Of a stretch of 64,000 bases of DNA, positions 413 through 34,505 are shown one piece after another. The notes beneath the pieces were generated by a model. It was not told the DNA's origin, did not search any database, and saw only the letters and a program-made list of their open reading frames with translations. The stretch's first letter is position 1. Each line of letters begins with the position of its first letter. Origin of the DNA: Thalassotalea insulae (GTDB lineage Bacteria > Pseudomonadota > Gammaproteobacteria > Enterobacterales > Alteromonadaceae); contig NZ_BSST01000001.1 in assembly GCF_030161395.1 (NCBI RefSeq), forward strand, positions 564,109 to 628,108. Direction: 5' to 3'. A program made the translations under genes and the position numbers.

Positions 413-3085
413 CTATAACGAACGTTTAACTTCCACTGTTTCAAACACTTCGATTTGATCGCCAACTTTAACGTCATTATAGTTCTTAACGCCAATACCA
501 CATTCCGTACCATTACGTACTTCCTGGACATCATCTTTAAAGCGACGTAAAGATTCTAATTCACCTTCATAAATTACGACGTTTTCACGTAAGACACGAA
601 TTGGCGCACTACGTTTAATGGTACCTTCAGTTACCATACAACCAGCAATAGCACCAATTTTTGGCGATTTAAAGACATCACGTACTTCTGCAAGACCGAT
701 AATTTCTTGTTTGAATTCAGGTGCAAGCATACCGCTCATCGCCTGTTTCACTTCATCAATCAATGCATAAATTACGCTGTAATAACGTAAATCAACACCT
801 TCAGATTCAATCACTTTACGCGCTGCCGCATCGGCACGAACGTTAAAGCCAATAATAATTGCGTTAGAAGCCGCAGCTAAGGTCGCGTCAGTTTCAGTGA
901 TACCACCAACACCTGAACCGATGATCTTCACTTTCACTTCGTCAGTAGACAATTTCGTTAATGAATCGGAAATCGCTTCAAGTGACCCCTGAACGTCTGA
1001 TTTCAGTACAACATTAACCTCTGAAACATCCCCTTCTTCCATGTTAGAGAACATGTTTTCCAGTTTCGATTTTTGCTGACGTGCTAATTTAACATCACGG
1101 AACTTACCTTGACGATATAACGCCACTTCACGCGCTTTTTTCTCATCTTTAACCACGGTTGCTTCATCACCTGATTGAGGCACACCGCTTAAGCCCAAGA
1201 TTTCAACTGGAATCGAAGGCCCTGCAGATTTAATCTCTTTACCATTTTCATCACGCATCGCACGAACACGGCCATATTCAAGACCACATAAGACGATATC
1301 ACCTTGATTCAAGGTACCCTCTTGCACAAGTACTGTGGCAACAGGTCCGCGACCTTTATCAAGCTTCGACTCAACCACGACACCATTTGCCATTTTATCA
1401 ACAACAGCCGTTAGCTCTAAGACTTCTGCTTGTAATAAAATAGAATCCAGTAACTCGTCGATACCTAATCCAGTTTTCGCTGAAACGTGAACAAACTGGA
1501 CATCACCGCCCCAATCTTCAGGAATAACATCGTGTTGTGATAGCTCAGTCTTAACACGATCTGGATCGGCAGTTTCTTTATCCATCTTATTCACTGCGAT
1601 AATAATTGGCGCTTCAGATGCTTTGGCATGTTGAATCGCTTCAATCGTTTGTGGCATCACACCATCATCAGCAGCTACTACGATAATAACGATATCCGTT
1701 GCTTTAGCACCACGAGAGCGCATTGCAGTAAACGCAGCGTGACCTGGAGTATCTAAGAAAGTGATCATGCCATGACCAGTTTCTACGTGATAAGCACCGA
1801 TATGCTGGGTAATACCCCCCGCTTCACCATCTGCCACTTTTGCTTGACGAATATGGTCAAGTAATGACGTTTTACCATGGTCAACGTGACCCATAATAGT
1901 CACTACTGGCGCACGAGTTATAGACTCACCGGCATCACCACGGTCGGATAATACGGCTTCTTCTAAAGCATTTTCTTTCACAAGAACCACTTCACGACCC
2001 ATTTCTTCAGCAACTAGGGCTGCTGTTTCTTGGTCGATCACTTGGTTAATGGTTGCCATTGCCCCCATTTTAAACATCGCTTTAACCACTTCAGCGCCTT
2101 TAACTGACATTTTATTAGCCAATTCAGCAACAGAAATTGTTTCACCAATACGCACTTCTTGCAGTTTAGTTTCAACTGGCTTTTGGAAGCCATGCTTTAA
2201 GCTTTGCGGTGCAGATAAAGTTTGCTTACCTTTGCCTTTGCCTCGGCCTTTTGCTTGTTTGTCTTGTTGATTGCTCTTTTTCTTACGACGACGGCGTCCA
2301 CCATCTTCTTCAGAATCAATCTTATCTTCTGCTTCTTGCGCATATTTAGAAGACGTTAAATGTACGACCTCTTTTTCTTTCTCTTTACGCTCAGCTTCTT
2401 CTGCTTTCCAGCGGGCTTCATTTTCTTCCGCTAGTTTTTTAGCTGCTTCAGCTGCCGCTTTCGCTTCTGCTTCGGCTTTTTCTTCAGCCTCTTTTTCAGC
2501 TTGTAGACGAAGCTTCTTAGCTTCTTCACTTTCAACCGGCTCTGGTTCTGGCTCTTTTTCGCTATCACCAGCTTTCGCTTTAGCCGCTTTGGCTTTTGCT
2601 TCAGCCTCTGCTTTTGCTCTCGCCTTACGTTCAGCTTCTGCTGCCGCTTTGGCTTCGGCTTCCGATTTAGCCTTAGCTTCCGCTTCGGCTTTAGCTTTCG
2701 CTGCTGCTTCGGCCTCGGCTTTCGCTAACGCTTCGGCTTCTTCTTGTGCCTTAGCTTCCGCTTCGGCAATTTGCTGCTCTTCTAACTCGCTACGTTTAAC
2801 ATAAGTACGTTTCTTACGCACTTCCACTTGTACCGATTTAGCTTTGCTACCACTCCCCATAACGAGTGTTGATTTCTTTTTACGGCTTAACGTCATTTTG
2901 CTAGGTTTTGCCGCAGAATCATCGCCATGTTGTTTTTTCAGATGCTCTAAAAGCGACTCTTTCTCATCTTGAGATATAGTGTCTGCCGCTTGTTTGTTAA
3001 CACCAATGCTTGCCAATTGGCCAACCAATTTATCGATTGGTGTGCCTATTTCTTTGGCAAGTTCTTCTACTGTTACAGATGCCAT
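413..3085 (-). CDS. infB: translation initiation factor IF-2
   Basis: 890 aa; Ala/Glu/Lys-rich N-terminal region, GTP-binding motifs ([17 protein letters not shown]), C-terminal IF2 beta-barrel domains; synteny nusA-infB. Confidence 0.95.
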
Positions 3086-3108
3086 CTATTTAATTCCCCC
3101 AGGGATTT

Positions 3109-4605
3109 TTATTCTTCGTTAAACCAGCAAATATTACGCGCGGCCATAATTAACTCACCCGCTCTGGTTTCATCTAATTCCTCAATGTCAGCAAGTTCAT
3201 CAACACCTTGCTCCGCTAAATCTTCTAGCGTGCGTACACCGCGACTTGCGAGGACAAAGGCTAAGTGGCGTTCTAACCCTTCTAATGCTAATAAATCTTC
3301 AGCTGGCTCGGCATTTTCTAATGATTCTTCACTAGCAAGTGCCTGTGTTGTTAATGCCGCTTTTGCTCGTTCACGTAATTCTTCAACGATGTCTTCATCC
3401 ATGCCATCAATTTCAAGTAATTCAGCCGTCGGCACATAGGCAATCTCTTCTAATGAAGTAAAACCTTCTTCAGCAAGCAAAGTAGCAAAATCTTCGTCAA
3501 TATCTAATTGTTCAGTAAATAAAGTTAAGACTTTGTCATTTTCCGCCTGATGTTTTTCGTTCATGGCATCAACCGTCATTACATTCAGTTCCCAACCAGT
3601 TAAATTACTGGCCAGACGAACGTTTTGGCCGCTACGACCGATTGCCATCGCTAAGTTGCCTTCTTCAACCGCAATATCCATAGTGCGCTTGTCTTCATCA
3701 ACAATGATTGAAGCGACTTCAGCAGGCGCCATTGCATTAATGACAAACTGAGCAGGATTATCGTCATATAACACGATATCAACACGCTCACCGCCAAGCT
3801 CGCCTGAAACGGCCTGTACACGAGAGCCTCGCATACCAACACAAGCACCAACAGGGTCAATACGCTTGTCATTTGACTTAACCGCAATTTTTGCTCGTGA
3901 ACCTGGATCGCGCGCTGCACCTTTAATTTCCAGCATTTCTTCACCAATTTCCGGCACTTCAACGCGAAACAATTCAATCAACATTTCAGGTTTTGTACGA
4001 GAAACAAATAATTGCGCACCGCGAGCTTCCGGTTTAATGGCATAAAGTAATCCACGCACACGGTCACCCGGACGGAACACTTCACGAGGTAACAGGTCAT
4101 CACGATAAATAATCGCTTCAGCGTTATTACCTAAATCCAAAATCACGCTATCACGGCTGGCTTTTTTCACCACACCTGTGATTAGTTCACCCACTTGATC
4201 CTGATAAGCATCAATCACAATAGCACGCTCAGCTTCACGTACTTTTTGTACGATTACTTGCTTCGCAGTTTGCGTAGTAATACGGTCAAACTTTACTGAT
4301 TCAATTTGCTCTTCAACATAGTCGCCTACCTGAACACTGTCATCGTCATATTGCGCCGCTGCTAATCCAATTTCAGCATAAGGGTTTTCTATAACCTCTT
4401 CAGTGTCTTCAACTACTAACCAACGTCTAAAGGTATCAAACTCACCTGTTTTACGATCGATACAAACACGAACGGCAATATCACCTTCATATTTCTTCTT
4501 GGTGGCGGTTTCTAATGCGGTTTCCATTGCTTCAAAAATACTTTCGCGTGGCAATGCTTTTTCATTAGATACGGCATCTACAACCAGTAAAATTTCCTTA
4601 CTCAT
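3109..4605 (-). CDS. nusA: transcription termination/antitermination factor NusA
   Basis: 498 aa; S1 and KH-like regions and acidic C-terminal repeats; sits between rimP and infB. Confidence 0.95.
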
Positions 4606-4645
4606 GCTACTTAGCCTTTATTAATCGTTATAATTCAATAATCTA

Positions 4646-5104
4646 TTAGTCAAATTTTGGTACTAGATTGCCCTTGTCGATATTACTAAAGACAAGTTCG
4701 TAATCTTCACCATCTACCGTTACCACAAGCGTGTCATTTTCAATCGCCGCGAGTAAGCCTTTAAATTTGCGGCGACCATTTAACGGTAGCGATAATCTGA
4801 TATTTACCGTTTCACCAATAACAGCCTGATAATGCGCTAAGCTAAACAAAGGGCGGTCTAAGCCTGGTGATGAAACTTCCAAGTTGTATTCTGTGCTGAT
4901 CGGGTCTTCTACATCGAGAATAGCCCCTACTTGACGACTCACTTCTGCACAATCATCAACGTCAATGCCGTTTTCATGATCAATAAAAAGTCTTAATACA
5001 GAATGTTTGCCTGCACTAATAAACTCAATACCTAATAATTCTTTACCAACTTCTTCAACTGCCGGTCGTAACATTTCCGTTAATTTATGTTCAAATTTAG
5101 CCAA
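4646..5104 (-). CDS. rimP: ribosome maturation factor RimP
   Basis: 152 aa, position directly upstream of nusA, typical RimP/YhbC length and sequence (…LEVSSPGLDRPL…). Confidence 0.85.
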   Translation of the reverse strand: MAKFEHKLTEMLRPAVEEVGKELLGIEFISAGKHSVLRLFIDHENGIDVDDCAEVSRQVGAILDVEDPISTEYNLEVSSPGLDRPLFSLAHYQAVIGETVNIRLSLPLNGRRKFKGLLAAIENDTLVVTVDGEDYELVFSNIDKGNLVPKFD

Positions 5105-5666
5105 TCAATTTCTCCGTTTTTCCAACATTCAGAAACAAAAAAAGGGCGTAAAGCCCAGCGATAATACTTGCTGTCATGCACCTTGCGATCTCAGATCGAT
5201 AAGATACAAAAAAACCCCAAAGTCGGGGCCTATTTTCACTGAACCCACGATGTTCGCTAAGTTAAATGAGCTTATCAAAACAACTTAGTAACCAAAGCAA
5301 TAATAAGGTAAACCGAACTATAAGATAACTCGACTAGCCTTCCAGTGACTTATTGCCCCAGATGAGATGCGCGAAATTATATAGTGATAACGACCAGACC
5401 GCAAGTACATTTCATCAAAGGGGCGATGAATTTCTCACAGCTAAAACATTTATTTTCCAATAATCCCTTACGCTTTCACTTGCTTGGTTCGCTTTCACTA
5501 TTTTTTCATGCTATAACAGCGAATGATAGTAAAAAATATATGTGTAACTTATTAAAATGTATCGATAATCACGACGATATTTATTTATCCACTATACTGA
5601 AAGTTGCACACTAATAAATAACTAGATCGCTTCGCTATCGATTGAACTAACTGGTTGAAGGTTTTT

Positions 5667-7550
5667 ATGTATACATATTCGCAGATGATTGCCAAAAATA
5701 TGCTTATTGCTGCCGTCTGTAGTGTGCTTTTTTCCGGCGTCACTTTTAAGTTGTTGTCAGGTAATGCAGAACATCAACAAAAGCTCCAACAGCAAATGTT
5801 AGCTCAGTTATATTCACAATCTGTTGAATATAACGCTAATAAAATTAAAGCTATTGCCCAGCCATTAACTCAATATCATTTTGCCCAGCTTGAAATTAAC
5901 TCAGCAAACGCTCAGCAAAGTTACAGAGTCAACAATGAACAATCAGCTGTGGCACAACTTATCGCTCCTGAGCCTGCAATCTTTAAACTCGCCAAGCAAC
6001 AACTGCAATTTAAATTGCAAATTAATACCAATGATAGCGCCACGTTATTTATTTACCTTTCACTTACCATGATGTTTCTGTCATTTGCGATTGTATTAAT
6101 TGGTGGCCAGTTTAGTATTCAACGTTATAAAAATATTATCAAAAGTATCAATCTGCAGATTAAAAATGCGTTAACAGGCATTTTGCACGCCGAGCAAGGA
6201 GCTGATAACAAGCAAACAACGCTATTTGATTTACCTGAACTAAATAACGGTATCAATGAAATCAATGAAATGGTGAATGAGCTTATCTCTGATAAAGGGG
6301 TGTTAAAAAAAGAAGCCTATATCGAACCGTTAACCCAGTTTGAAAATCGCACTCGCTTTGTTCAATATTTTGAAAGTAAAAATGAAACGGTAGATTTTGG
6401 CGTATTAACTATCACCCGGTGTTCAGAATTACAAACCGTCAACCAAATTCACGGCTATACCGAAGGTGATAATTACATTTGCAAAGTCGCAGATATTTTG
6501 AAAAAAGCTTGCAGTAAATACCAATTCGCGAAAATATTTCGCCTTAACAGCTCAGATTTTGCCACTATATTACCCAATACCACGTTAAAAGACGCGGAAA
6601 ACTATGCAGAAGATATCAGTAATTATTTTAATGAGTACCAGCAAGCTTCTGACCTTGATTCCGTCGGTTATACCGGTTTAGTGTATTTTGATAAGAGTAA
6701 TTCCTTAGGCGAGCTATTGGCGCTGGCAGATACCGGTATCAGTGTTGCCCAAACCAAACAAATCAATGCCTGGTATGCACAAACCGATACCGATATTTTA
6801 GCAAGCTCTAGTGCTAGTTATGGTAATCAAAACTGGCGTCAGGAAATTGATAACGTTATTGATAACCACAGGGTTAAACTACTTGTACAACAAATCAAAC
6901 CAACCACACGTAGCGCCCGTGTTTATAACGAAATTTTAGCTCGTTTCCTTAATTCCAATGAGGAAATGCTGCCGACCGCCTCTTTTATCGCGATGGCTGA
7001 AAAACTCGATAAAATAGTCGCTATTGATAAATTGATCATTGAAACTGCCATCACTGAAATTAGTCGCAAAAACTTAACCGAACAACATTTTGGCATTAAT
7101 ATCAGTGCCCGCACTATCCACGACGAACAATTTATGATTTGGCTCGAGCGTCGCTTATTAAAAGAAGCTCGCATAGCAAAAAATTTAGTCTTTGAAATTA
7201 GTGAATTTGGTCTACAACAAAATATTAAAACCAGTAAACGCTTTATTGACATGATCCATAGAGTGGGAGCCAGGATCACAGTAGAACGCTTCGGTGTCGG
7301 CCTGACTTCCTTTAAGTTCTTTCGCGACCTTAAGCCTGACTTTATCAAAATGGACAGCATCTATACCCGAGACATAGATGAAGATAAAAACAATCAATAC
7401 TTCCTGCGACTAATGGTTGATCTCGCGCATCGCCTGAGTATAACAGTACTGGCAGAAAGCGTTGAAAGTCAGGAAGAAAAATTCATGTTAGAAAAGCTAT
7501 TCGTTGATGGCTGCCAAGGTTTTTATCTGGGTAAGCCGGAAGCGATTTAA
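5667..7550 (+). CDS. membrane-anchored degenerate GGDEF-EAL domain protein (CsrD/MshH-like)
   Basis: Two N-terminal TM segments, a GGDEF-like fold without a GG(D/E)EF motif, and an EAL-type domain (EIL...FEISEF...KMDSIY) in which the DDFGTG metal-binding motif is replaced by ERFGVG. The ORF track opens at 5655 with TTG, so I chose the ATG at 5667 preceded by GAAGG. Confidence 0.6.
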   Translation: MYTYSQMIAKNMLIAAVCSVLFSGVTFKLLSGNAEHQQKLQQQMLAQLYSQSVEYNANKIKAIAQPLTQYHFAQLEINSANAQQSYRVNNEQSAVAQLIAPEPAIFKLAKQQLQFKLQINTNDSATLFIYLSLTMMFLSFAIVLIGGQFSIQRYKNIIKSINLQIKNALTGILHAEQGADNKQTTLFDLPELNNGINEINEMVNELISDKGVLKKEAYIEPLTQFENRTRFVQYFESKNETVDFGVLTITRCSELQTVNQIHGYTEGDNYICKVADILKKACSKYQFAKIFRLNSSDFATILPNTTLKDAENYAEDISNYFNEYQQASDLDSVGYTGLVYFDKSNSLGELLALADTGISVAQTKQINAWYAQTDTDILASSSASYGNQNWRQEIDNVIDNHRVKLLVQQIKPTTRSARVYNEILARFLNSNEEMLPTASFIAMAEKLDKIVAIDKLIIETAITEISRKNLTEQHFGINISARTIHDEQFMIWLERRLLKEARIAKNLVFEISEFGLQQNIKTSKRFIDMIHRVGARITVERFGVGLTSFKFFRDLKPDFIKMDSIYTRDIDEDKNNQYFLRLMVDLAHRLSITVLAESVESQEEKFMLEKLFVDGCQGFYLGKPEAI

Positions 7551-14177: not shown

Positions 14178-15402
14178 GCTGTGAGGTCAACTGATGGACG
14201 CAACACATTGATTAAATCTTTCTGCTGGTGATTCATAGTTTAGCGTCTTTCTCGGCCTTTCGTTTAACTGTCTAGCTACCTGACTCAATTTTTGTTGGTT
14301 ATGCACACTCAAGTCACTACCCTTTGGGAAGTATTGTCTAAGTAACCTATTGGTATTTTCATTAGAGCCACGCTGCCAAGGTGATTTAGGATCACATAAG
14401 TAAATTTGTATATCTGTGGCTAGCGTGAAGTCTTTATGATTGGTCATTTCTGAGCCTCTATCCCAAGTGAGTGTTTTATATAGCTCAGCAGGTAACTTAT
14501 GTGCTTGTTTAATCAGTGCGGAAATAACTGTAGCCGTTTTATTGTCATATACTTTTGCCAACATCACATAACGTGAATGACGCTCCACGAGCGCCGCAAT
14601 AAACGTATTATTACAGCCTTGTATTAAATCGCCTTCCCAATGACCAGGTATTGCTCTATCTTCTACTTCTGCTGGGCGCTCACTAATTGAAACAGCATCA
14701 TTGATCCTTCCTATCCCTTTACCTTTTAATGAGGTTGTTCTCGATTTTCTAACAACACGTTTAGTTCTCAAGCACTTTTGAAGCTCCTTTTTCAAAGCAC
14801 CTCTCGTTTGAATATATAACGTTTTATAAATCGTTTCGTGCGACACCTGCATTTCCTGATTGTTTGCATAGGTTCGTTTTAGCCAACCTGATATTTGCTG
14901 TGGAGACCATGCACGTTTTAATTTTTGAGCGATGACATAACACAAGTCAGGATTACCTTTAAGCATACACTCCTTTGGCCTTTTGGTATTCTCCCATGCT
15001 GCTGCATCAGCTTTATTTGCCCTATAGTGCTCTAAGCCACCACTTCTTTTAACTTCGCGACTAATAGTGGGAGGTGCTCTAGAAAGTTTTCGACTTATTT
15101 CTCTTAAAGATAAATTAGCAGCTAGCCCTCTAGATATTTCTTCTCGTTCGCTCAATGATAATGAGGTGGGATGTCTTTTCCGTTCAGGAGGTCTAAACCC
15201 TCCTGTATTGTATATCGTAGGCATGATTGAAGAGTGATAACGATCAAACATGCGGGCAATATCATGAAGAGAATCACCTTGTTTGTAACGATCCCATATT
15301 AATGCTTTTTGTTGAGGTGAATAGTAAATTCGTTTTCTTTGTTTCATAGCAACGTACCCCTTGTTTAAGGATAGCGTTGCATCGACCAATTGATCTCACA
15401 GC
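14178..15402 (-). mobile_element. IS30-family insertion sequence (about 1.2 kb) with imperfect terminal inverted repeats
   Basis: Single 400-aa IS30-type transposase. Left end gctgtgaggtcaactgatggacgcaaca and reverse complement of right end gctgtgagatcaattggtcgatgcaacgc match as terminal IRs. Inserted 67 bp downstream of nth. Confidence 0.8.
14187..15389 (-). CDS. IS30-family transposase
   Basis: 400 aa; N-terminal HTH, DDE catalytic region (…HWEGDLI…), typical IS30 transposase architecture. Confidence 0.85.
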   Translation of the reverse strand: MVDATLSLNKGYVAMKQRKRIYYSPQQKALIWDRYKQGDSLHDIARMFDRYHSSIMPTIYNTGGFRPPERKRHPTSLSLSEREEISRGLAANLSLREISRKLSRAPPTISREVKRSGGLEHYRANKADAAAWENTKRPKECMLKGNPDLCYVIAQKLKRAWSPQQISGWLKRTYANNQEMQVSHETIYKTLYIQTRGALKKELQKCLRTKRVVRKSRTTSLKGKGIGRINDAVSISERPAEVEDRAIPGHWEGDLIQGCNNTFIAALVERHSRYVMLAKVYDNKTATVISALIKQAHKLPAELYKTLTWDRGSEMTNHKDFTLATDIQIYLCDPKSPWQRGSNENTNRLLRQYFPKGSDLSVHNQQKLSQVARQLNERPRKTLNYESPAERFNQCVASIS

Positions 15403-18850: not shown

Positions 18851-19663
18851 CTAGCTTCCAGTTAAATACTGTTTTTCATACTCTTCGGGAGACACATGGC
18901 CAAGGTGGCTATGTAATCGCTTACGATTGTAGAACATTTCAATGTAATCAAACAAATCTGCTCTAGCATCATTACGAGTCTCGTACACTTTTCGTTTAAC
19001 ACGCTCAGTTTTAAGTGAGTGAAAAAAGCTTTCTGCTACCGCATTATCTAAGCAATGTCCTCGGCGACTCATACTCGGTACTAGGTTGTTTGCCGTTAAG
19101 AATTCACGGTAATCACAGCTCGCGTATTGGCTGCCTTGGTCGCTGTGAACTATTACTTCATGTTTTGGGTTCCTGCGCCAAACAGCCATTAATAGTGCTT
19201 TGATCACTATATCTTTACTCATGTTCGGTTGCATCGACCAACCAATGATTTTTCGCGAGAATAAATCAAGTACTACAGCAAGGTACAGCCAGCCTTCATA
19301 GGTTTTGATATAGGTAATATCGGCTACCCAAGCCGTATCTGGCTCACTAACAACAAACTGTTGTTGAAGGTGATTGTCTGCTATTAATGCGGGCACAGTT
19401 GACTTGAAGTATCGCCTTTTATATCCAATATTAGCTTTTAGCTTGGCTTGCTTCATTAGACGAGCTACACGGTTTTCACCGCACGTTTCTCCCTTACGGC
19501 GTAATTCATGCGTAATACGTGGACTGCCATAAACACCACCACTCTCAACATAGCTTGCCTTGATGCGCTCAAGCAGCCTCTGGTTCTCTTGCTCACGTTT
19601 AGATAGTGGTTGTTTGAGCCAAGCATAGAAGCCACTACGGTGAACATTTAATGCCTGACACAT
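18851..19663 (-). CDS. IS3-family transposase OrfB (integrase catalytic core)
   Basis: 270 aa from the first ATG. The frame stays open upstream through the overlap with orfA. DDE rve-type domain (…HSDQGSQY…). Confidence 0.85.
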   Translation of the reverse strand: MCQALNVHRSGFYAWLKQPLSKREQENQRLLERIKASYVESGGVYGSPRITHELRRKGETCGENRVARLMKQAKLKANIGYKRRYFKSTVPALIADNHLQQQFVVSEPDTAWVADITYIKTYEGWLYLAVVLDLFSRKIIGWSMQPNMSKDIVIKALLMAVWRRNPKHEVIVHSDQGSQYASCDYREFLTANNLVPSMSRRGHCLDNAVAESFFHSLKTERVKRKVYETRNDARADLFDYIEMFYNRKRLHSHLGHVSPEEYEKQYLTGS

Positions 19664-25711: not shown

Positions 25712-28700
25712 TCAATCAATAATCATCTCATCTGAACTACTTTTTCTATCCTTTGCTATTTCTCTACTTATTTTTTGCATATGTGTTTCCGAGCTGCTCG
25801 CTGAAATCTCACTAGTAAAGTTTAGTGTTTTTAAGGTTTCAATCATTTCCAAATCGACATTTTTGTTACTTTCAAGAGCCGACACCAAAGGCGTTAAAAA
25901 CAATTCCATATTTTGAGTAAAAAGTGAAAGTGTATGCTCTAATTCCGAATAGTCAGGTTTTTCCACATTCACTTGTAGCTTAAGGTTAGCAACGGTTTCA
26001 TTTAATGTCTCCAATCCCCCTGATTGTGGTTGTTGCAAAACTTGCCCTATTTGGTTTAGGCCTTTTTGTAATAATGAAATCTGACTTGCAATAGTGGCTA
26101 TTGGATTATCATTATCGCCAAGGTTTTGATGACGGACAAAGTCTTCTTTGATTTGCTTCCACCGAGCAACTTGATCACCGCTTTGTGCGCCGCGAAGTTC
26201 AGCTAACTTCAATAAATTTTCTTCTGCACCAACAGTAAGAGTTTGAGCTTCTCCACGATAATGATCGGTGATTAATTGCTCGACCTCTTCATCAGTCATC
26301 ACTGGAACGACTTTTTCAGCCATTTTATTCATATTGCGATAACTTCCTTGCAATTTAAATGGTGGTTCCGTTCGATATTTATCGTCTTGTGCTGCAGATG
26401 CTATATATTGTTCATTCGCTTTTAGTACTGTTTCTTGAATTTTTCGAATGCGTTGAATGACAGCAACAATTTCATTAATTTCAGCTTGAGAATAACCATA
26501 CTTTAATTCAGTAGAAGCAATTGGCTCGCCATCTGCAATTTTAACTAATTTATATAAATCATCCATCTCGCGAGTCGCCAATGGCGCAAGGTATGAATTA
26601 CTGGTTAAACTATTCTCGATAAAACTTAAAGAAAACTCTTGCTCACGACCACTCAAAGTATCCCCTAGGTTATAGATATCAGCACGATTAGCTAACATAT
26701 CAGGAATAGTAAATGCTTCTCCAGATTCGGTGTATGGGTTACCCGCCATAACGATTGCAAACTTTTTACCTCGCATGTCATAGGTTTTACTTTCACCATT
26801 CCATACTCCATCCACTCTCCTAGATCCATCACATAGAGAAATGAACTTCTGCAAAAACTCCGGATTTGTGTGTTGAATATCATCAAGGTAAAGCAAAACA
26901 TTGTTACCCATTTCGAAAGCCAAGTTGATTTTTTCTACTTCATTTTTTGCAGTAGAATTATTTGCCTGAGCAGGGTCGAGTGACAGCTGCTCATGACCAA
27001 TCGATGGACAATTAATTTTGACAAACGTCATTCCCAGCTTACTAGCGACGTATTCAATTAACGTGGTTTTACCATAACCTGGGGGTGAAATAAGTAATAA
27101 CAGCCCCATTAGATCCGTGCGTTTATTGTTACCAGCGGCACCAATTTGTTTAGCTAAATTAGTACCTATAATTGGAAAATAAACATCATTTATTAGTTTA
27201 TTTCGAACAAAAGACGACAGCGCACTTGGTTTGAACTCCTCTAACCTTAAACGTTTGCGTTGCTGTTCTAACACTCTTTGCTTGTTTTGGTGAAACGCTC
27301 TAAATGCAGGTACATGCTCATGACAAAACTGGCGGATCTTAGTAATAAACTCTTGATAGTTAATTTGAATTTTTCTATCCACAATTAATAAATGCTGGCC
27401 AAGTAAACCATCGACTACTACGTCAGTATTAGCACCCGAGCTATAAAACTGACATTGCCCCTCCATCATCAGGAGCATAGATGCCTCAATGAGTACATCG
27501 TGAGTAACAGTTATTTCTTGATGACGTACAAATGATTGTAACCAAGCAAAATGAAGCTGATATTTCTGAGAAATAGTTGAACAACCAGATAACGCTCCAT
27601 TAATTTTATTTTCTAAAACTTTATGCTTTAACTGAGCTTTCAATTGTTCCACTAACGTTAAGCTGGCTTCTTTTATGATAAAGCTCAACTCTATAGATGC
27701 TAACTCTTGAATTAGATAAGACGCAGCTAGAGAAGTATCACCCCACAACCATTCCTGTTTTTCGATGTACTTCCCCAATGCCGAGGCAATTTCTTCAACA
27801 AGCTGTTGGCGTAACTCTCCACTACCAAATGTCTCTTCCATTAAGTTCAAATTTTGACAACGACGCCTTAAGTCTTCTTGTTCAGTTAAACTTAACTCTA
27901 AATTAAAGAAACATATACCTAATCGCCTTTCTTGCGCTGAAAAAGCCAATAGCCCGATAGATTCTTTTAACGCTAATAGTTGAGATAAAATTAAGGCGGC
28001 ATCGGCATCATGAACGCCTTTATCATAACCTTCTTGATATCTAGGCTCAGCCGATTTTCTAATAAGGTTAACAAGCTCACCGTTTTTATCTGCTTCTTGT
28101 AAACGCTCTACAGCAATAATACCTTTCGATTCAGCCTCAAATAAAATCGTAGCCGCTAAATATTCCCCTCGATAAACAGCATCACTTTCAGAAATAAGTT
28201 CTTGCTGCCAAAGGTACTTTGTTCCGGCAAAAATTTTTGGGTCGAGTGGTTCAAAATACTCACTACCACTAATATGGAGCACCATAGCATCGTCGCGAGG
28301 AAGCAAGGTGAGTTCTAACTTCTGTCGATTTACCGAAAATTGATGTTCCCCTATTTGAACTAGACTACCATCAGCAGAATAGATCTCACTTTTATCACGG
28401 AGCGCTCTAATTCCTTGCTCTTGAGCATTTTTTAATTGAGCTTCAACATCATCAGCCCTAACATTATCATCAAGCTCTCGTAGTTGTTTGACAAGCTGTC
28501 GAAGCTTAGCAATCATAGGATCACCAGCAAAATAACTATTTAATTTATCTTGCTCGTTGAACGTTTGACTACGACGATTAACCCCTTCAAGAATACGCTC
28601 AGCTGCCGTCATTAAGTTTAAACAACGTCGCTGCTGAGTATCCATCAGCTGTTGCTTATGCTGTTCAAAATTATCGTAAATTTCGTCTCGTTTAGCTAAA

Positions 28701-30931
28701 ATTTCATTGTAAAATTCATCGTAATCACTAAATTGACTTTCCAGTTCTTCTAATTGGACAAGTATTTGGGATAGTTGTTGATCACAATTCTGAGGGCTAT
28801 CGCTAGCATTTAATCCACTGGTTACACTTTGACTCAGTAATTTAAAGCGAGCACCAAATTCAGCTCTAGCTTCTTCACTGCCAACACTTTTCACAGCAAG
28901 TTCAGCGCTGGCTTTAACTTTATTTATTTGGCTAAAAACTGTTGAAATATCTTCTAAAATTCGAGTTCGTTGCCTGCTATCTTCTATTTCTAACGACAGC
29001 ATCGTGCGATTTAATAATTCTAGTCCTTGTGTAAGTTCATCAATAGCCGCTTGAATTGGTTTCAATTCCGTGACTGATTCATTAATCTCCACTGCTTTTT
29101 CAAGTTCACAAATAGTGTCTTGATAAGGCTTTAACGCTTGATCTTTCTGCAGAAAATCGGCCGTAGCCTGGCTGAGATCTTTGGTTAACTGATCGAGGTT
29201 AACTTCCATTGCCTCTATTTCACCAACATCGATATATCGCAACTCTTTGTGCGTGATGAGTTCACCTTTAAATTGCGTAAGTTCAGCCAAGCTTTCCACA
29301 AACTTTTTGGCGCTATCAAAATTCGAATTTTTAATATCTTTGGTTAGTGTCTCAAGTTTTTCTCGTGCTTCAGCCATTATGGCATCTGAGTTTTCTTTGA
29401 TACTGGAGACTTTTTCAAATTCATCAAGTACCAATTCTGACGTCGTCACTACCTGCTTAAGTAACTCATTGAGTGTCTGTAATTTGATATCACTAAGCCA
29501 ATGATATTTATCAAAAAGTAACTTTGACTCTTTAACTAAATCATTAAAATGATAAGCACTCGGCTCTTGCACAGAAATAAGCTTAACCACACCGTATAAG
29601 TCAGAGACCCCACGGACAAGTTCAGGATTTCCTATTTTACCAAAAAAGCTATTATCTGCAGGCTGATCACTCGCATACTCTTCACTGCAAAAAGGTGTTT
29701 GCCAAATCTGCATAGCATGCACCCTTGATGGTTCAGATTCAGCATTGAAAACAACCACTCTACCGTTGTTATACAAACTTTGCCCATGGCCATAAATCGG
29801 GTTTTGCAAGGTTCGCGTGATCAAGTTGTAACCAAACAACGCATACTGGCCTTCATTTGGTTCATAAAAAATATAAAGAAAGTCTTCACCATTAGGCGAT
29901 TTAACCACTCGATGCAATTGAAGATCTTCAGCGCTGTCTTCAAAGCTTTTATTTTCACCATTTTGCAGGTAATACCCGCCCGGAAAAATAATGCCATGAT
30001 CTTCTGGTAATTGAATACAAGTATGAGCGATAGCGTCCTGTCTAAGTACCTGATGAGTTTTACAGTTGAAAATTAGATGACGCGTTACTTCTTCCCTATA
30101 AGGCTTTATCTTTAAGAGTATCAGTTCCCCGACTTTAGCGTATTGAATATCCGCGTCATCAAGTGACTGATGGTCATCATCAACAGGCTCTGAATAAATT
30201 CCTTCACCTTCTTCAGTATTATTTTCAATTTTTAAGGTGATCGAGCCACCAATTGATTCAACAAAAAGCGTATCAAATAAATTGTAATGAGGATGCTTAC
30301 CTTGTTCTTGTTGCTCCCGTGATACTTTATGCCATTCAAAGTCAAAGTTATCAGGTTGTTTAATGTCACGTTCGCCACGATTATCGATATAAGTCACTTG
30401 CTGCTGCGCATCTATTCCCCAGCGGAAAACCCGAATATCATCAAGGCGGTCTCCAATACGAAAAACGGCAAATACTTTACTTCCCTGGCGATAAACGTGA
30501 GCAAGAAATGTTTTCTTATAATAGGTGTACAATTCATCGAAATCTCGAACAAATTCAGCATCATCAAGAAAACTGCCATTTATCGGAATATCAACAATTT
30601 CAACTTCGCCATCATTGTCTTTAAGTTGATGTAGACTGAATACATCAGCAACAGTGATATTACGTTTTAACCCTAAAAAAACGTTATAACCAAAAAGCAA
30701 AATGTCGCCTATAGCAGCAATATCTCTTGCTATACAGTTATGTTCAGTTCGTACCCTGATCCGTGCGTCAACAGTCATGTCAGTAGAACCAAACGTTGCA
30801 ATACGTTCGTCATTTAACTGTTTTATCTGTTTATTAAGATCACTACCTAAGGCCGATAATCGACGCTGAATAAGCTCATATGAACCACCTTCAGCAACCG
30901 CTTGATTGGTGACACTTTCCTTATCTGTCAT
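25712..30931 (-). CDS. giant (1739 aa) coiled-coil protein with a single internal AAA+ ATPase module; function unknown
   Basis: Uninterrupted ORF with GGAG RBS 8 nt upstream of ATG. Walker A GYGKT (residue about 1290), Walker B LLYLDD and sensor-1-like MAGN, flanked by long heptad-rich regions and an N-terminal domain of about 450 aa with no recognisable motif. Last gene of the nfeD-flotillin operon. Confidence 0.75.
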   Translation of the reverse strand: MTDKESVTNQAVAEGGSYELIQRRLSALGSDLNKQIKQLNDERIATFGSTDMTVDARIRVRTEHNCIARDIAAIGDILLFGYNVFLGLKRNITVADVFSLHQLKDNDGEVEIVDIPINGSFLDDAEFVRDFDELYTYYKKTFLAHVYRQGSKVFAVFRIGDRLDDIRVFRWGIDAQQQVTYIDNRGERDIKQPDNFDFEWHKVSREQQEQGKHPHYNLFDTLFVESIGGSITLKIENNTEEGEGIYSEPVDDDHQSLDDADIQYAKVGELILLKIKPYREEVTRHLIFNCKTHQVLRQDAIAHTCIQLPEDHGIIFPGGYYLQNGENKSFEDSAEDLQLHRVVKSPNGEDFLYIFYEPNEGQYALFGYNLITRTLQNPIYGHGQSLYNNGRVVVFNAESEPSRVHAMQIWQTPFCSEEYASDQPADNSFFGKIGNPELVRGVSDLYGVVKLISVQEPSAYHFNDLVKESKLLFDKYHWLSDIKLQTLNELLKQVVTTSELVLDEFEKVSSIKENSDAIMAEAREKLETLTKDIKNSNFDSAKKFVESLAELTQFKGELITHKELRYIDVGEIEAMEVNLDQLTKDLSQATADFLQKDQALKPYQDTICELEKAVEINESVTELKPIQAAIDELTQGLELLNRTMLSLEIEDSRQRTRILEDISTVFSQINKVKASAELAVKSVGSEEARAEFGARFKLLSQSVTSGLNASDSPQNCDQQLSQILVQLEELESQFSDYDEFYNEILAKRDEIYDNFEQHKQQLMDTQQRRCLNLMTAAERILEGVNRRSQTFNEQDKLNSYFAGDPMIAKLRQLVKQLRELDDNVRADDVEAQLKNAQEQGIRALRDKSEIYSADGSLVQIGEHQFSVNRQKLELTLLPRDDAMVLHISGSEYFEPLDPKIFAGTKYLWQQELISESDAVYRGEYLAATILFEAESKGIIAVERLQEADKNGELVNLIRKSAEPRYQEGYDKGVHDADAALILSQLLALKESIGLLAFSAQERRLGICFFNLELSLTEQEDLRRRCQNLNLMEETFGSGELRQQLVEEIASALGKYIEKQEWLWGDTSLAASYLIQELASIELSFIIKEASLTLVEQLKAQLKHKVLENKINGALSGCSTISQKYQLHFAWLQSFVRHQEITVTHDVLIEASMLLMMEGQCQFYSSGANTDVVVDGLLGQHLLIVDRKIQINYQEFITKIRQFCHEHVPAFRAFHQNKQRVLEQQRKRLRLEEFKPSALSSFVRNKLINDVYFPIIGTNLAKQIGAAGNNKRTDLMGLLLLISPPGYGKTTLIEYVASKLGMTFVKINCPSIGHEQLSLDPAQANNSTAKNEVEKINLAFEMGNNVLLYLDDIQHTNPEFLQKFISLCDGSRRVDGVWNGESKTYDMRGKKFAIVMAGNPYTESGEAFTIPDMLANRADIYNLGDTLSGREQEFSLSFIENSLTSNSYLAPLATREMDDLYKLVKIADGEPIASTELKYGYSQAEINEIVAVIQRIRKIQETVLKANEQYIASAAQDDKYRTEPPFKLQGSYRNMNKMAEKVVPVMTDEEVEQLITDHYRGEAQTLTVGAEENLLKLAELRGAQSGDQVARWKQIKEDFVRHQNLGDNDNPIATIASQISLLQKGLNQIGQVLQQPQSGGLETLNETVANLKLQVNVEKPDYSELEHTLSLFTQNMELFLTPLVSALESNKNVDLEMIETLKTLNFTSEISASSSETHMQKISREIAKDRKSSSDEMIID

Positions 30932-31009
30932 CTATGACTCCATGAACATCTTGATACAACGGGCCAGGTAAGCCCGTCGTTTTTACCTACTAGTACTATT
31001 GCAAATTTG

Positions 31010-32992
31010 CTACTTTACTTCAGATGCTGACTTACCATCCAAATTCAACAGACTAGCAAGTACACCTTTTTGCGATTCATCAGCATTATTTAATGTCGAA
31101 AGTAACTTTGCCATGTTGAAATTTTTAAGTGTTTCACTCGATTGTGCCGCGCCCGAAAGAACGCCACCAAGGTCATCCATAATATTACGGTCACCGTTTA
31201 AATGTTCTTTAAATAAGTTTTTAACCGTATCACTTTCATTCACTAATCCATCAATAGATTTTCCGACCGTAATTGATTTCATAAATTGACGTAAAAATTC
31301 TCCGTCGCCTCCCATGATATTGATATTAGCTTCACTTAATGCTGTGGCGAGTACATCTGCTTGTTTTTCTGCAAGATCAACACTGTTATCCAACTTAGCA
31401 AGCGTTAATTCCCGCTCCTGATTTAAGCGTAAACCAAAGGTTTCAAACTCTCTAGCTTGCTCTGACATGGCATTTAGTACTTCTTGTTTTTCACGCAAAC
31501 CTTTCGCTTCCGCTAACGCTTTTTCTTCAATGCCTTTAGCTTCAGCCGTCAACTTAAGCTCAAGTGATTTAGCTTCAGCTTCACCTTGTCTTTCATTTGC
31601 ATCAGCTTGCGCTAAAGTAACTTGCGCCTCAGCTAATCCTTTTGATGCAACTTCAGCTTGTTCACCCTCTGCTAATATTTTCTTAGATTCTGCCTGTTTG
31701 CTCGCAGCTTTCAATTCAGCTTCGGCTATTGTTTGCATCTTCCTTGCAGTATGCTCTGCCGCTTGCTCTTGTGCCTTAGCAGACTCAATGTCTTTTACTA
31801 ACGCTTCTTCAGCTTCTGCCTGCGCTTGTATTACTTGCTCGTTTTTCTTACGGTTAGCTTCCGAAACAACGCGTAAATCTTTAATTCGCTCTTCTTCCTC
31901 TGCAACATTTTTCTCAACAGAAATTCGCTCTCTTTGAACTTCAGCAATATTTTTACGTTCAATTTCCAACGCTTTTTCTTTATCGATACGCAGTGTTTCT
32001 ACTTCTTTTTGACGATCAATCTCTTCAATTTGCCGTGCTCGTGTCACTTTTTCTTCTTCAATCGCAACAGCTCTTAATCGATTCTGCTCTGCAATATCAG
32101 CCTCTCGCTGCTTATTCTCTTCCGCTACAGCGACCGTTTGCTCGGTTGCGATGCGAGCCTGTTCAGCTTTGGCACGTTCTTCTTCTACAATTCTTGCTGT
32201 TTCTGCTTCTTCACGTGCTTTTACTGTAGCAATTTCCCTTGCCTGTTTAGCTTCCGCATCCGCCAATTGTCGTTCTAATTCCAGACGTTTTTCTTCGGCA
32301 TCTATATTCTGGCGCTTAATTCGAATTTCTTCCTGACGCTTCAAGTCATTGGTTTCAACACTTTGTAAAGCTGTCAGCTCGGTAATGCGCCTGATACCTT
32401 CGGCGTCCATAATATTATTAGGATCTAAATCATTAATTGATGTTTGTTCAAGAAAATCAATCGCAACATCTTCCAATACGTAACCCGAAAGATCCTGACC
32501 GATGACTTCTTTGATCTTATCTCTAAACATATCGCGCTGAGTAAATAACTCGGTAAAATTTAATTGTTTACCTACAGTTTTAAGCGCTTCTGAAAACTTA
32601 GCTTCAAACAACTCTTGCAAAGTTTCAGGATAAGAAGAACGGTCACAACCAACCTGTTTTGCAACTCGAAGAATATCTTCTTTGGTTTCGTTTACCCGGA
32701 TATAAAAGGTAATGATAATATCGGCCCGAATATTATCTTGACAAATCAAACCTGAACGTCCCTTGCGCTCAAGCATCATGCGTTTGGTCGAAATATCCAT
32801 AATCTCTTTTTTATGGATCACAGGAATAACCATACCACCTGTGGTACTGATTTCAGGTTCTGCTCGCAATTTATTAATAATCAGCGCTTGGCCTTGTTCG
32901 ACTTTGTTATAAAATTTAGCCACCATGATTAAAAGAGAAAAGACGAAAAGTACGCCAATTCCAATAGCTAAATAAAGTGGTTCCATTACCAT
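31010..32992 (-). CDS. flotillin-family SPFH/band-7 protein (YqiK-like) with long Glu/Ala/Lys coiled-coil
   Basis: 660 aa; N-terminal TM helix, SPFH domain (…MVIPVIHKKEIMDISTKRMMLER…), extended EA-repeat coiled-coil. Confidence 0.85.
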   Translation of the reverse strand: MVMEPLYLAIGIGVLFVFSLLIMVAKFYNKVEQGQALIINKLRAEPEISTTGGMVIPVIHKKEIMDISTKRMMLERKGRSGLICQDNIRADIIITFYIRVNETKEDILRVAKQVGCDRSSYPETLQELFEAKFSEALKTVGKQLNFTELFTQRDMFRDKIKEVIGQDLSGYVLEDVAIDFLEQTSINDLDPNNIMDAEGIRRITELTALQSVETNDLKRQEEIRIKRQNIDAEEKRLELERQLADAEAKQAREIATVKAREEAETARIVEEERAKAEQARIATEQTVAVAEENKQREADIAEQNRLRAVAIEEEKVTRARQIEEIDRQKEVETLRIDKEKALEIERKNIAEVQRERISVEKNVAEEEERIKDLRVVSEANRKKNEQVIQAQAEAEEALVKDIESAKAQEQAAEHTARKMQTIAEAELKAASKQAESKKILAEGEQAEVASKGLAEAQVTLAQADANERQGEAEAKSLELKLTAEAKGIEEKALAEAKGLREKQEVLNAMSEQAREFETFGLRLNQERELTLAKLDNSVDLAEKQADVLATALSEANINIMGGDGEFLRQFMKSITVGKSIDGLVNESDTVKNLFKEHLNGDRNIMDDLGGVLSGAAQSSETLKNFNMAKLLSTLNNADESQKGVLASLLNLDGKSASEVK

Positions 32993-33064
32993 GTGTTTTT
33001 CCTCTTATTTAAAGCATAGCCACCTATAGTGACCAAATGAATTTTGAAAATTAAATTTGATGAG

Positions 33065-33697
33065 TTACTGTACATAAGGTGCAACAATATAAGCATGATT
33101 TTCCTCTAAATATTCAACAACCAATACTTTATCTCCCAGCTTAAGGACATGTTGAGGATCGCATCTAACATCAACTAAGATCTCCGCCCCCTCATTGAAC
33201 AAGCGCGCCTGACCAAAAATCTCATTAACTGAACCAGTCGCGATAATTGCTTCTTTACCGACTAAATGACGACTAGTTACTGTTTCTACACTGTTAAACA
33301 TACCTTTTAACGGACGAATGGCAATAGCTGTAATTGGCAGTGATAATACAAAAATAAGAAAATCACTCACTGTTCCAATAAAATAATATAACCAACCATC
33401 AGGTAGCCATGTAAGTAAGTAAAATTGAAGATAAAAACTTATTAACCAACAAATAAGAATAATAATGCTGATCACTAAAGTAAAAGGTACGCCAGTTAAG
33501 CCAAACGTTAGCAAAAGCCCAGTTAGCCCCCCAACCGATACATCAACATCACTGTCGATATCCAATTCAATGTCGCCAGAAAAATCTAAATCGATAAAGC
33601 CTAATAAACCAACAATCCAATAGACAATGACAATACCAAGAAGAACGGAATAAATGACGGTAGGAAATTGAGAAGCGACTACAAGCAGTTGTTCCAT
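33065..33697 (-). CDS. NfeD-family membrane protein (YqiJ-like) with C-terminal OB-fold
   Basis: 210 aa; multiple TM helices then soluble beta-rich C-terminus; immediately upstream of flotillin gene (72-bp gap), the canonical NfeD-SPFH pairing. Confidence 0.7.
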   Translation of the reverse strand: MEQLLVVASQFPTVIYSVLLGIVIVYWIVGLLGFIDLDFSGDIELDIDSDVDVSVGGLTGLLLTFGLTGVPFTLVISIIILICWLISFYLQFYLLTWLPDGWLYYFIGTVSDFLIFVLSLPITAIAIRPLKGMFNSVETVTSRHLVGKEAIIATGSVNEIFGQARLFNEGAEILVDVRCDPQHVLKLGDKVLVVEYLEENHAYIVAPYVQ

Positions 33698-33956
33698 AGT
33701 TAATCCTTTAAATAAATCAGCAATTCAGGCTAATCTGATCCCAATGTAAACTCACTATAACCTTAAGACATATTATGTCAATTTATAATTTACATGTTTT
33801 TAACATGCAAATTACCATAGTTAATGTTATAAATCATCTAATAAATTATTGACAAACAACCTGAATTTAAACTTATTTTAGTGACATATCTCTATAAACA
33901 TGAATAAGATAGAACAGTTTATTACAAAAAATGGAAATGGATAAGGAAATAGGAAT

Positions 33957-34505
33957 ATGAAATGTACCAGTTGTAAACAAGGCGAATTAATTCCCTGCTT
34001 TATTGACGGACAATTTAGAGCACATACTTGTACTAGCTGTGAAGGTCATTGGATTTTAATAGAAGACTATGTCGCATGGAAAGATCGTAACCCGCAATTT
34101 TCCTTCGATGAAAGTATTCAATGTGATATTGACGAAACAAACCAAGCAATCCTTTGCCCCGTATCTGGTACGATTATGCGCAAACTCCGCCTTTCTACCA
34201 GAACAGAGCATCGTATTGATTATAGTGCCAGTGTAGGTGGAGTATGGTTAGATAAAGGAGAGTGGGAATTACTCAAAAAAGAAGGTTTAGCAGGTTCGCT
34301 CAATGCAGTACTAACAGCCCATTGGCAAAGAAATATTCGAATCAATAGCACTAAAGATAACTTTGCAGAGATATACAAAGACAAATTTGGACAAGATACT
34401 TATAAAAAAGTAAAAGAGCTAAGGGAATGGCTATATCAGCACCCCAATAAAGCTGATTTAAGAGCCTATATTTTAGCTGATGACCCATATTCAGCAGAAA
34501 AATAA
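33957..34505 (+). CDS. zinc-ribbon (TFIIB-type zf) domain protein
   Basis: 182 aa; two C-x2-C…C-x2-C pairs (CTSCKQ…CTSCEG; CPVSG…); divergent from the nfeD operon. Confidence 0.5.
   Translation: MKCTSCKQGELIPCFIDGQFRAHTCTSCEGHWILIEDYVAWKDRNPQFSFDESIQCDIDETNQAILCPVSGTIMRKLRLSTRTEHRIDYSASVGGVWLDKGEWELLKKEGLAGSLNAVLTAHWQRNIRINSTKDNFAEIYKDKFGQDTYKKVKELREWLYQHPNKADLRAYILADDPYSAEK

Follow-up and report, generated by a model that had tools for sequence, protein, structure and literature searches.

A giant DUF3686 ATPase encoded with a YqiJ-like protein and a flotillin in Thalassotalea insulae: a probable membrane-maintenance operon

Several AAA+ ATPases are known to work together with a partner assembly: FtsH sits inside HflK/C cages, the m-AAA proteases go with prohibitin, and Vps4 acts with ESCRT-III. 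The SPFH proteins also have ties to PspA, which is brought to the membrane of Bacillus subtilis by the SPFH protein YdjI. Here we consider a three-gene locus of the gammaproteobacterium Thalassotalea insulae that encodes, in this order, a YqiJ-like membrane protein, a flotillin and a giant AAA+ ATPase. The locus lies in a stretch of 64,000 nucleotides (contig NZ_BSST01000001.1 of assembly GCF_030161395.1, positions 564,109 to 628,108), which we call the window and to which all coordinates below refer. We establish the identities of the three genes, the domain architecture of their products, the nearly obligate linkage among them and a recurrent linkage to PspA, and we lean towards reading the locus as a flotillin-cage-associated AAA+ remodeller in an envelope-stress and membrane-maintenance network, a mechanism that we infer.

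The closest described system is the operon that Ravi et al. (2024, mSystems 9:e00847-23, PMC11237479) put forward in silico, which combines a CesT/Tir-PspA pair with a flotillin, a beta-propeller/AAA-ATPase and a YqiJ/YuaF-type transmembrane protein. The same authors (PMC11237479) describe abbreviated operons without PspA as more widely distributed, and their Dokdonia string contains CesT_Tir, YqiJ-YuaF, Band-7 + coiled-coil + flotillin, and beta-propeller + coiled-coil + AAA-ATPase. The locus in the window has the same three proteins with the same domain architectures in the same gene order, Dokdonia being compared by its listed architecture. It differs in that the CesT/Tir-PspA pair is missing and that a divergent zinc-ribbon gene, a small transmembrane-protein gene and a downstream synthase fusion are present. 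Judged from the sequence, it is the abbreviated form of the operon of Ravi et al. The association itself is already published, in a paper that is computational only and gives the ATPase without a Pfam name, structure or mechanism; what is new here is the Colwelliaceae example, the confident structure models and the quantified linkage. Our literature search found no paper joining DUF3686, PF12458 or the name "DNA repair ATPase" with flotillin, SPFH or PspA.

Genes 1 and 2 correspond, by homology and by order, to yqiJ-yqiK of Escherichia coli and yuaF-floT of B. subtilis. In E. coli there is no third gene, and sibD/ibsD come after yqiK. Because neither gene 1 nor gene 2 has a usable direct match in Pfam or NCBIfam, family profiles of operon-linked homologues are needed to place them. 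For gene 1, Pfam gives no direct match, the NfeD C-terminal domain included; the profile of 68 operon-linked homologues aligns to E. coli YqiJ with an hhalign probability of 94% (E 1.3e-7), and the alignment covers the transmembrane region and the C-terminal region (query 137-195). Hydropathy indicates several N-terminal transmembrane segments (3-4 hydrophobic stretches), and the C-terminal domain is probably beta-rich.

For gene 2, no Pfam match to SPFH/Band 7 (PF01145) is obtained even at E 10, and the match to the NCBIfam model FloT is weak (E 0.009). The profile of the family (72 members) aligns to E. coli YqiK over 414 columns with an hhalign probability of 99.9% (E 1.6e-33), and Pfam Band_7 is matched by 10 of the 72 members (best E 5e-11); it is by these profile-level matches that gene 2 is assigned to SPFH/Band 7. 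The protein begins with a transmembrane segment (residues 1-31), followed by the SPFH domain (about residues 35-215), an E/A/K-rich coiled coil of some 300 residues (about 215-520) and a conserved C-terminal domain. The likeness to YqiK has its limits: the window flotillin is about 30% identical to it in the aligned region, below Pfam Band_7 detection, and its C-terminal domain is not aligned by hhalign. PDB sequence searches with the proteins of all three genes return P-loop-level matches at most, or none.

The listing of open reading frames confirms all three genes on the minus strand (Table 1), with 72 nucleotides (nt) between genes 1 and 2 and 78 nt between genes 2 and 3. A Shine-Dalgarno-like motif stands ahead of each start (AAGGA, AAGAGGA and GGAG, one per gene), and in a site scan of the region neither gap has a sense-strand site resembling a terminator. 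The GC content of 0.38-0.39 is the same as in the remainder of the window. The sequence-only reading, an earlier look at this DNA made from its letters without database searches, had recognised an NfeD/YqiJ and SPFH/flotillin pairing within three co-directional genes with gaps of 72 and 78 bp and no internal terminators; the pairing is upheld by the alignments to YqiJ and YqiK, and the coordinates and the site scan agree with the rest. At the level of sequence, the three genes are confirmed as a single operon.

Table 1. Coordinates in the window of the operon, of the domains of the giant protein and of the adjoining features
Feature	Position	Strand	Basis
Gene 1: YqiJ/YuaF-type (short NfeD-like) membrane protein, 210 residues	33065..33697	-	Family profile match to YqiJ
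Gene 2: flotillin-family SPFH protein, 660 residues	31010..32992	-	Family profile match to YqiK
Gene 3: DUF3686/DUF7902/AAA+ ATPase, 1739 residues, NCBI name "DNA repair ATPase"	25712..30931	-	Pfam
Gene 3, N-terminal long helix, residues 1-47	30791-30931	-	AlphaFold2 model
Gene 3, divergent beta-propeller, residues 53-411	29699..30775	-	AlphaFold2 model, about 30 strands
Gene 3, helical region with DUF7902, spectrin-like bundles, residues 417-850	28382..29683	-	AlphaFold2 model
Gene 3, middle region, two small beta units and a helical domain, residues 851-1239	27215..28381	-	AlphaFold2 model
Gene 3, AAA+ module, residues 1240-1475	26507..27214	-	Invariant columns, AlphaFold2 strand order, Foldseek
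Gene 3, C-terminal helical region, residues 1476-1739	25715..26506	-	Invariant columns, AlphaFold2 model
Putative sigma-70 promoter of the operon: TTGACA, 16-nt spacer, TATAGT	33754..33781	-	11/12 consensus matches
Palindrome overlapping the -35 hexamer, candidate operator	33767..33779	-	Cross-locus conservation
GC-rich hairpin ACGGGC...GCCCGT in the flotillin-giant gap	30959..30977		Terminator-like on the + (antisense) strand only
Double zinc-ribbon protein (Zn_ribbon_TFIIB), 182 residues, divergent from the operon	33957..34505	+	Pfam PF13453, E 2.9e-10
Small protein with several transmembrane segments, 139 residues	34529..34948	+	Homologues near the operon in two loci
Transporter-like/spermidine-synthase-like fusion, 675 residues	23397..25424	-	NCBIfam NF037959 MFS_SpdSyn, E 7.9e-16

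The giant protein of gene 3 falls into a named family. Pfam assigns to it PF12458 (DUF3686, E 9.5e-190), PF25472 (DUF7902, E 1.9e-22) and PF00004 (AAA, E 9.5e-9), and the DUF3686 match scores 631 bits against a gathering cut-off of 25 and runs through model positions 1-448 of 448. The reading frame is full length, with 100% coverage and 84% identity to Colwellia proteins of 1739 residues. More than 5000 homologues are found in the database, the closest from Colwellia, Litorilituus and Thalassotalea at 70-84% identity, and many of them carry the NCBI name "DNA repair ATPase". Residues 1-700, used in an exhaustive search, bring up 875 clusters at 50% identity, and the architecture of 1600-1900 residues is retained down to about 28% identity. 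On first sight of the sequence this gene had been described as encoding a giant coiled-coil AAA+ protein unlike any characterised flotillin partner, with a structure or profile search named as the means of finding whether it belongs to a characterised family. The AAA+ assignment is supported both by Pfam and by the Foldseek matches given below. The search places the protein in the named family DUF3686, the function of which is uncharacterised; the partnership with flotillin had already been predicted, and it remains correct that the family is experimentally uncharacterised.

AlphaFold2 models of the protein, made with a 71-sequence alignment, have a predicted local distance difference test (pLDDT) of 88.7 for residues 1-700 and of 85.9 for residues 700-1739. 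Behind the long N-terminal helix is the divergent beta-propeller, for which Foldseek returns only propellers from the PDB (DCAF1 WDR, CyRPA, tricorn and prolyl oligopeptidase, E 3e-6 to 5e-4, with low template modelling scores). The helical region that follows consists of spectrin-like bundles, which would act as a spacer. With this propeller and these bundles, the protein is not mainly coiled coil, and the first description needs correction there. Hydropathy finds neither a signal peptide nor an N-terminal transmembrane segment, and one internal hydrophobic stretch (residues 979-997) is located inside the helical middle domain; since a signal peptide and an N-terminal transmembrane segment are both missing, the protein is probably cytoplasmic.

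For the middle region no family or fold assignment is obtained. The invariant residues of the giant family, as defined by a 17-sequence alignment at 30-69% identity, include here the motif G972-x-H974-D975-x-D977 (27998-28015), with E915, R921 and R1002 nearby, and this motif could be a metal-binding or catalytic site. At the other end of the protein, the first part of the C-terminal region is conserved (QGSYRNM motif), and the last 90 residues or so are a poorly conserved, low-confidence and disordered tail.

The AAA+ module between these two regions has a Walker A motif SPPGYGKTT (K1288), a Walker B motif LYLDDIQH (D1350, D1351), a sensor-1 residue N1398 and a candidate arginine finger R1416; K1288, the two aspartates, N1398 and R1416 are invariant in the family. 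In the AlphaFold2 model a beta-hairpin comes ahead of the sensor-1 strand and helix 2 is without an insert, and the best Foldseek matches are RuvB, MoxR-type CbbQ/NorQ, ClpA/B, MCM and Lon (E about 4e-5). The model points to a HCLR/RuvB-like placement. When a sequence profile of the AAA+ region is compared with PDB chains, classical AAA chains included, the match is around the P-loop and Walker A only, and a PDB sequence search with the giant protein likewise gives P-loop-level matches only.

The RuvB likeness bears on a reading in which the protein is a DNA-repair or nucleic-acid motor tethered at the membrane, as the Pfam description "ATPase involved in DNA repair" and the NCBI name would have it. 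RuvB is the top Foldseek match, there are weak matches to Pfam RuvB_N (E 7.5e-4) and NCBIfam RuvB (E 2e-4), and the segment after strand beta-2 (GPxLGH...), which we take to resemble that of RuvB, can be counted on the same side. The RuvB models, however, cover about 50 residues and score 20 bits against a cut-off of 282. Furthermore, the Pfam, NCBIfam and PDB searches detect neither a nuclease nor a DNA-binding domain, the 80 gene neighbourhoods surveyed below show no recurring DNA-repair gene, the obligate partners are membrane proteins, and we found no paper in support of the name. We regard a DNA motor as very improbable. The name "DNA repair ATPase" most likely stems, we infer, from RuvB-like P-loop similarity, and as a public name for this protein it has no support in our results and is probably misleading.

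Does the linkage of the giant gene with flotillin exist in other genomes? Our scan of 185,579 species genomes (one per species) with the 17-sequence alignment confirmed the family at 585 loci or more, and a set of 80 was retained; the genes around these 80 were assigned by iterative hidden Markov model (HMM) searches over the open reading frames in six frames. Of the 76 loci having upstream DNA, 75 show a same-strand flotillin homologue upstream of the giant gene, and a YqiJ-like gene is upstream of the flotillin in 73 of 74. Such a survey of neighbourhoods had been proposed in the sequence-only reading, and its outcome is that homologues of the giant protein do track with SPFH-NfeD pairs. Coincidental adjacency, a candidate explanation of the linkage, is ruled out by the 75 loci out of 76. 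The loci come from at least six phyla, among them Pseudomonadota (Gamma- and Betaproteobacteria), Myxococcota, Actinomycetota, Planctomycetota and Acidobacteriota, together with one Clostridia metagenome-assembled genome (MAG). Stop and start codons of successive operon genes often overlap; in several actinobacterial and myxobacterial loci the overlaps or gaps measure 1-4 nt, which suggests translational coupling. The pairwise identities of the flotillins and of the giant proteins are correlated across loci (r = 0.88), and the genes flanking the operon vary from locus to locus.

Two of the loci have foreign genes, of mobile or toxin-antitoxin-like character, between the flotillin and the giant gene. 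In Lampropedia (locus L028, positions 2570-5962) these are a gene for an NYN-domain protein and a nucleotidyltransferase/HEPN-like pair, and in a Zetaproteobacteria MAG (L036, 3956-5989) they are two PD-(D/E)XK transposase-family genes. The operon thus tolerates interruption in these two places.

We turn to the genes that recur beside the operon, obtained by clustering all flanking open reading frames of the 80 loci and checking the clusters with HMM and Pfam searches. A DUF2170(YjfI)-PspA_IM30 pair is beside the operon in 30 of the 80 loci, 27 times directly upstream on the same strand and three times on the opposite strand (L046, L070, L075). TelA is downstream of the giant gene in 10 loci, all from Xanthomonadales. 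A TerB-like gene of 79-86 residues is found in six, between the flotillin and the giant gene in L007, L010, L017 and L061 (Pseudomonas, Lysobacter) and downstream in L006 and L023. TelA and the TerB-like gene point to a tellurite/toxic-anion stress gene set. Plasmid pQBR103 has in one string the genes for YjfI, PspA, a rhomboid protease, DUF2491, DUF350, DUF1190, glutathionylspermidine synthase, the YqiJ-like protein, SPFH and the "DNA repair ATPase". Stress response and membrane remodelling were among the roles first suggested for the locus, and with PspA, YjfI, TelA and TerB as neighbours they are the ones that we favour.

How the three proteins would act together can be outlined from the known SPFH systems. 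Like the SPFH complexes of solved structure, the flotillin and its NfeD-like partner would build an oligomeric cage or ring at the inner membrane, on its cytoplasmic side. The giant protein would dock on this scaffold through its propeller or its helical bundles and oligomerise through its AAA+ module, and it would spend ATP to remodel either the scaffold or the PspA/ESCRT-III-like polymers and clients gathered there during envelope stress. FtsH-HflK/C and m-AAA-prohibitin are alike in that an SPFH scaffold is coupled, genetically or physically, to an AAA+ ATPase at the inner membrane. They differ in that the giant protein has no N-terminal transmembrane segment and no protease domain, and in that its AAA+ module is RuvB/HCLR-like with a pre-sensor-1 hairpin and not of the classical clade; the homology is limited to the AAA+ fold.

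Several observations weigh against an AAA+ remodeller working on flotillin cages, and they have to be kept in view. In the giant family the Walker B motif is DD, not DE, and the aromatic pore-loop motif after strand beta-2 is not present (the consensus there is GPxLGHxVTSLDP). Both are more in keeping with a slow switch or a RuvB-like motor than with an unfoldase of the classical threading kind, and they call for caution on a threading mechanism. The nearest structural matches of the module include the DNA motor RuvB. In a single locus (L047) no flotillin gene neighbours the giant gene, 50 of the 80 loci are without PspA nearby, and an HMM search across the 64-kb window finds no homologue of PspA or DUF2170. 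Our search of the literature found no experiment on any member of the DUF3686 family, and co-transcription of the three genes in T. insulae is presumed.

The same two features of the module matter for a more specific variant of this explanation, protease-less quality control of membrane proteins, in which a flotillin/NfeD cage would confine damaged or unfolded membrane proteins and the AAA+ protein would extract or unfold them, an analogue of FtsH in HflK/C cages. One report on Staphylococcus aureus describes FloA-NfeD as stabilising unfolded proteins (PMC11222466), the structural matches include the HCLR-type ClpA/B and Lon, and the beta-propeller could serve as a client- or adaptor-binding domain. 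In addition to the DD Walker B and the missing aromatic pore loop, this variant has against it that there is no protease domain and no linked protease gene, save the rhomboid protease in pQBR103, and that the flanks of the 80 loci show no recurring chaperone genes. We consider it rather unlikely in this specific form.

A bolder extension concerns PspA. A 2025 review describes a Vps4-like ATPase as apparently absent from bacteria, which makes the giant protein a candidate for that role. The proposal would be that bacteria have their missing Vps4 counterpart in the DUF3686 giant ATPase, which would use ATP to remodel flotillin cages and PspA/ESCRT-III polymers at the damaged membrane; we put it forward as a speculative and doubtful one. 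The likeness to Vps4/ESCRT-III of archaea and eukaryotes is that the gene of an AAA+ ATPase stands beside a gene of the ESCRT-III superfamily (PspA) in the 30 loci. The giant protein differs from Vps4 in being about four times larger, in belonging to another AAA+ clade and in being linked foremost to flotillin rather than to PspA; Pfam gives it no MIT domain match, and its module is not a classical AAA module. If the proposal were true, the operon would encode by itself a bacterial machine for membrane repair, and the AAA+ architecture of this machine, made of a propeller, spectrin-like rods and a RuvB-like motor, would be new. Bacterial flotillins and PspA are well studied, and for the Vps4-like role in the dynamic control of their assemblies a 190-kDa ATPase that is nearly always encoded with the flotillin/NfeD pair, with PspA in more than a third of the loci and in at least six phyla, is a concrete and testable candidate.

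The surroundings of the operon in the window raise another possibility. The operon is in a variable stretch of about 25 kb, bounded on one side by the rnf operon (about 7.8-14.1 kb) and on the other by nadA/tol-pal (from about 39.9 kb); the stretch also holds genes for a peptidase S41, a LysR regulator, a RibD_C protein, a methyltransferase, a glyoxalase and a molybdopterin oxidoreductase. An IS30-like transposase (14187-15389, minus strand) and an IS3-like transposase (18851-19663, minus strand) are located 6-11 kb downstream of the operon, and the core chromosome around the stretch has infB, nusA, rnf, nadA, tolB and aspS. Of the IS-rich (insertion sequence) accessory island that the sequence-only reading had placed next to the locus, what stands is a pair of transposases in a variable stretch; the stretch itself is surrounded by core chromosome. 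As for the suggestion that the operon may itself be accessory, it is not an IS-borne island: it is conserved across the Colwelliaceae, and its upstream flank is found in another Colwellia genome as well.

A position in a variable stretch with IS elements would also suit an anti-phage or other conflict system anchored at the membrane, with the giant ATPase as the sensor of infection and the flotillin/NfeD pair, joined in some genomes by phospholipase D, as the effector that damages or seals the membrane. Consistent with such a system are a large multi-domain ATPase with a propeller, the patchy distribution (at least 585 hits among the 185,579 species genomes), the NYN and nucleotidyltransferase/HEPN-like cassette and the PD-(D/E)XK transposase-like genes inside two operon copies, and the phospholipase D neighbour in some copies. 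In Colwellia psychrerythraea, for example, phospholipase D and DUF2339 are downstream of the operon; neither neighbour is conserved across the 80 loci. The database searches argue in the other direction. PADLOC (PADLOC-DB v2), run on six proteins, gives only a P-loop-level match to mad8 (E 0.019), and no copy of the giant gene is found among 2.9 million viral contigs. Of 72,556 plasmid records 13 have it, and most of these 13 are megaplasmids or chromosomes labelled as plasmids by mistake. The recurring neighbours are PspA, YjfI, TelA and TerB, not defence genes, the gene order is stable across phyla, and the divergence of the components is correlated. No defence-island context is seen in the window or in the annotated loci inspected, the flanks of the 80 survey loci having been clustered for recurring genes and not screened for defence genes. 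A defence role, raised as a possibility when the locus was first read, finds no support in these results, and we judge it quite improbable. As a separate point, phage origin of the giant gene is ruled out by its absence from the viral contigs.

There remain the genes on the two sides of the operon. Zinc ribbons and transporter/spermine-synthase fusions are among the PspA partners described by Ravi et al. (PMC11237479), and both types of partner flank the operon in the window. Homologues of the zinc-ribbon protein are present in about nine loci and in three positions: divergent upstream (L003, L085), in the gap between flotillin and giant gene (L050, L052, L063, L071 and, in a short form, L061) and downstream (L023). 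A count of 23 loci, obtained by BLAST clustering, was dropped as most of the cluster members were spurious open reading frames in alternative frames. The 139-residue transmembrane protein has no family match in Pfam or NCBIfam scans; a homologue with 83% identity is divergent-upstream of the operon in Colwellia (L086), another with 66% identity comes straight after the giant gene in Paraglaciecola (L013), and the protein might possibly be an accessory partner of the operon. Homologues of the zinc-ribbon and transmembrane proteins at varied positions in distant genomes suggest that the two are optional partners. The synthase fusion follows the giant gene after 287 nt on the same strand, with no terminator-like site between them. 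It suits the membrane-stress theme, and pQBR103 likewise has a synthase of this kind, the glutathionylspermidine synthase, in one string with the trio. The fusion is in the flanks of none of the other surveyed loci, and this adjacency is unique to the window among the loci examined.

The non-coding parts of the locus contain three further elements (Table 1). The hairpin between the flotillin and the giant gene has no T-run following it on the sense strand, the T-run being on the antisense strand only, and it could be a processing or attenuation element of the sense RNA. Directly upstream of gene 1, the top sigma-70-like site of a 9.6-kb scan is the putative operon promoter, the -35 hexamer of which is unchanged in four Colwelliaceae loci. 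The palindrome that overlaps this hexamer, GACATAATATGTC, may be an operator for some regulator. Its arms, GACAT and ATGTC, are kept in the window and in two other Colwelliaceae loci (L085, L086), and in Thalassomonas (L003) the right arm is shifted by an 8-nt insertion (GACATAATGTC...GTC).

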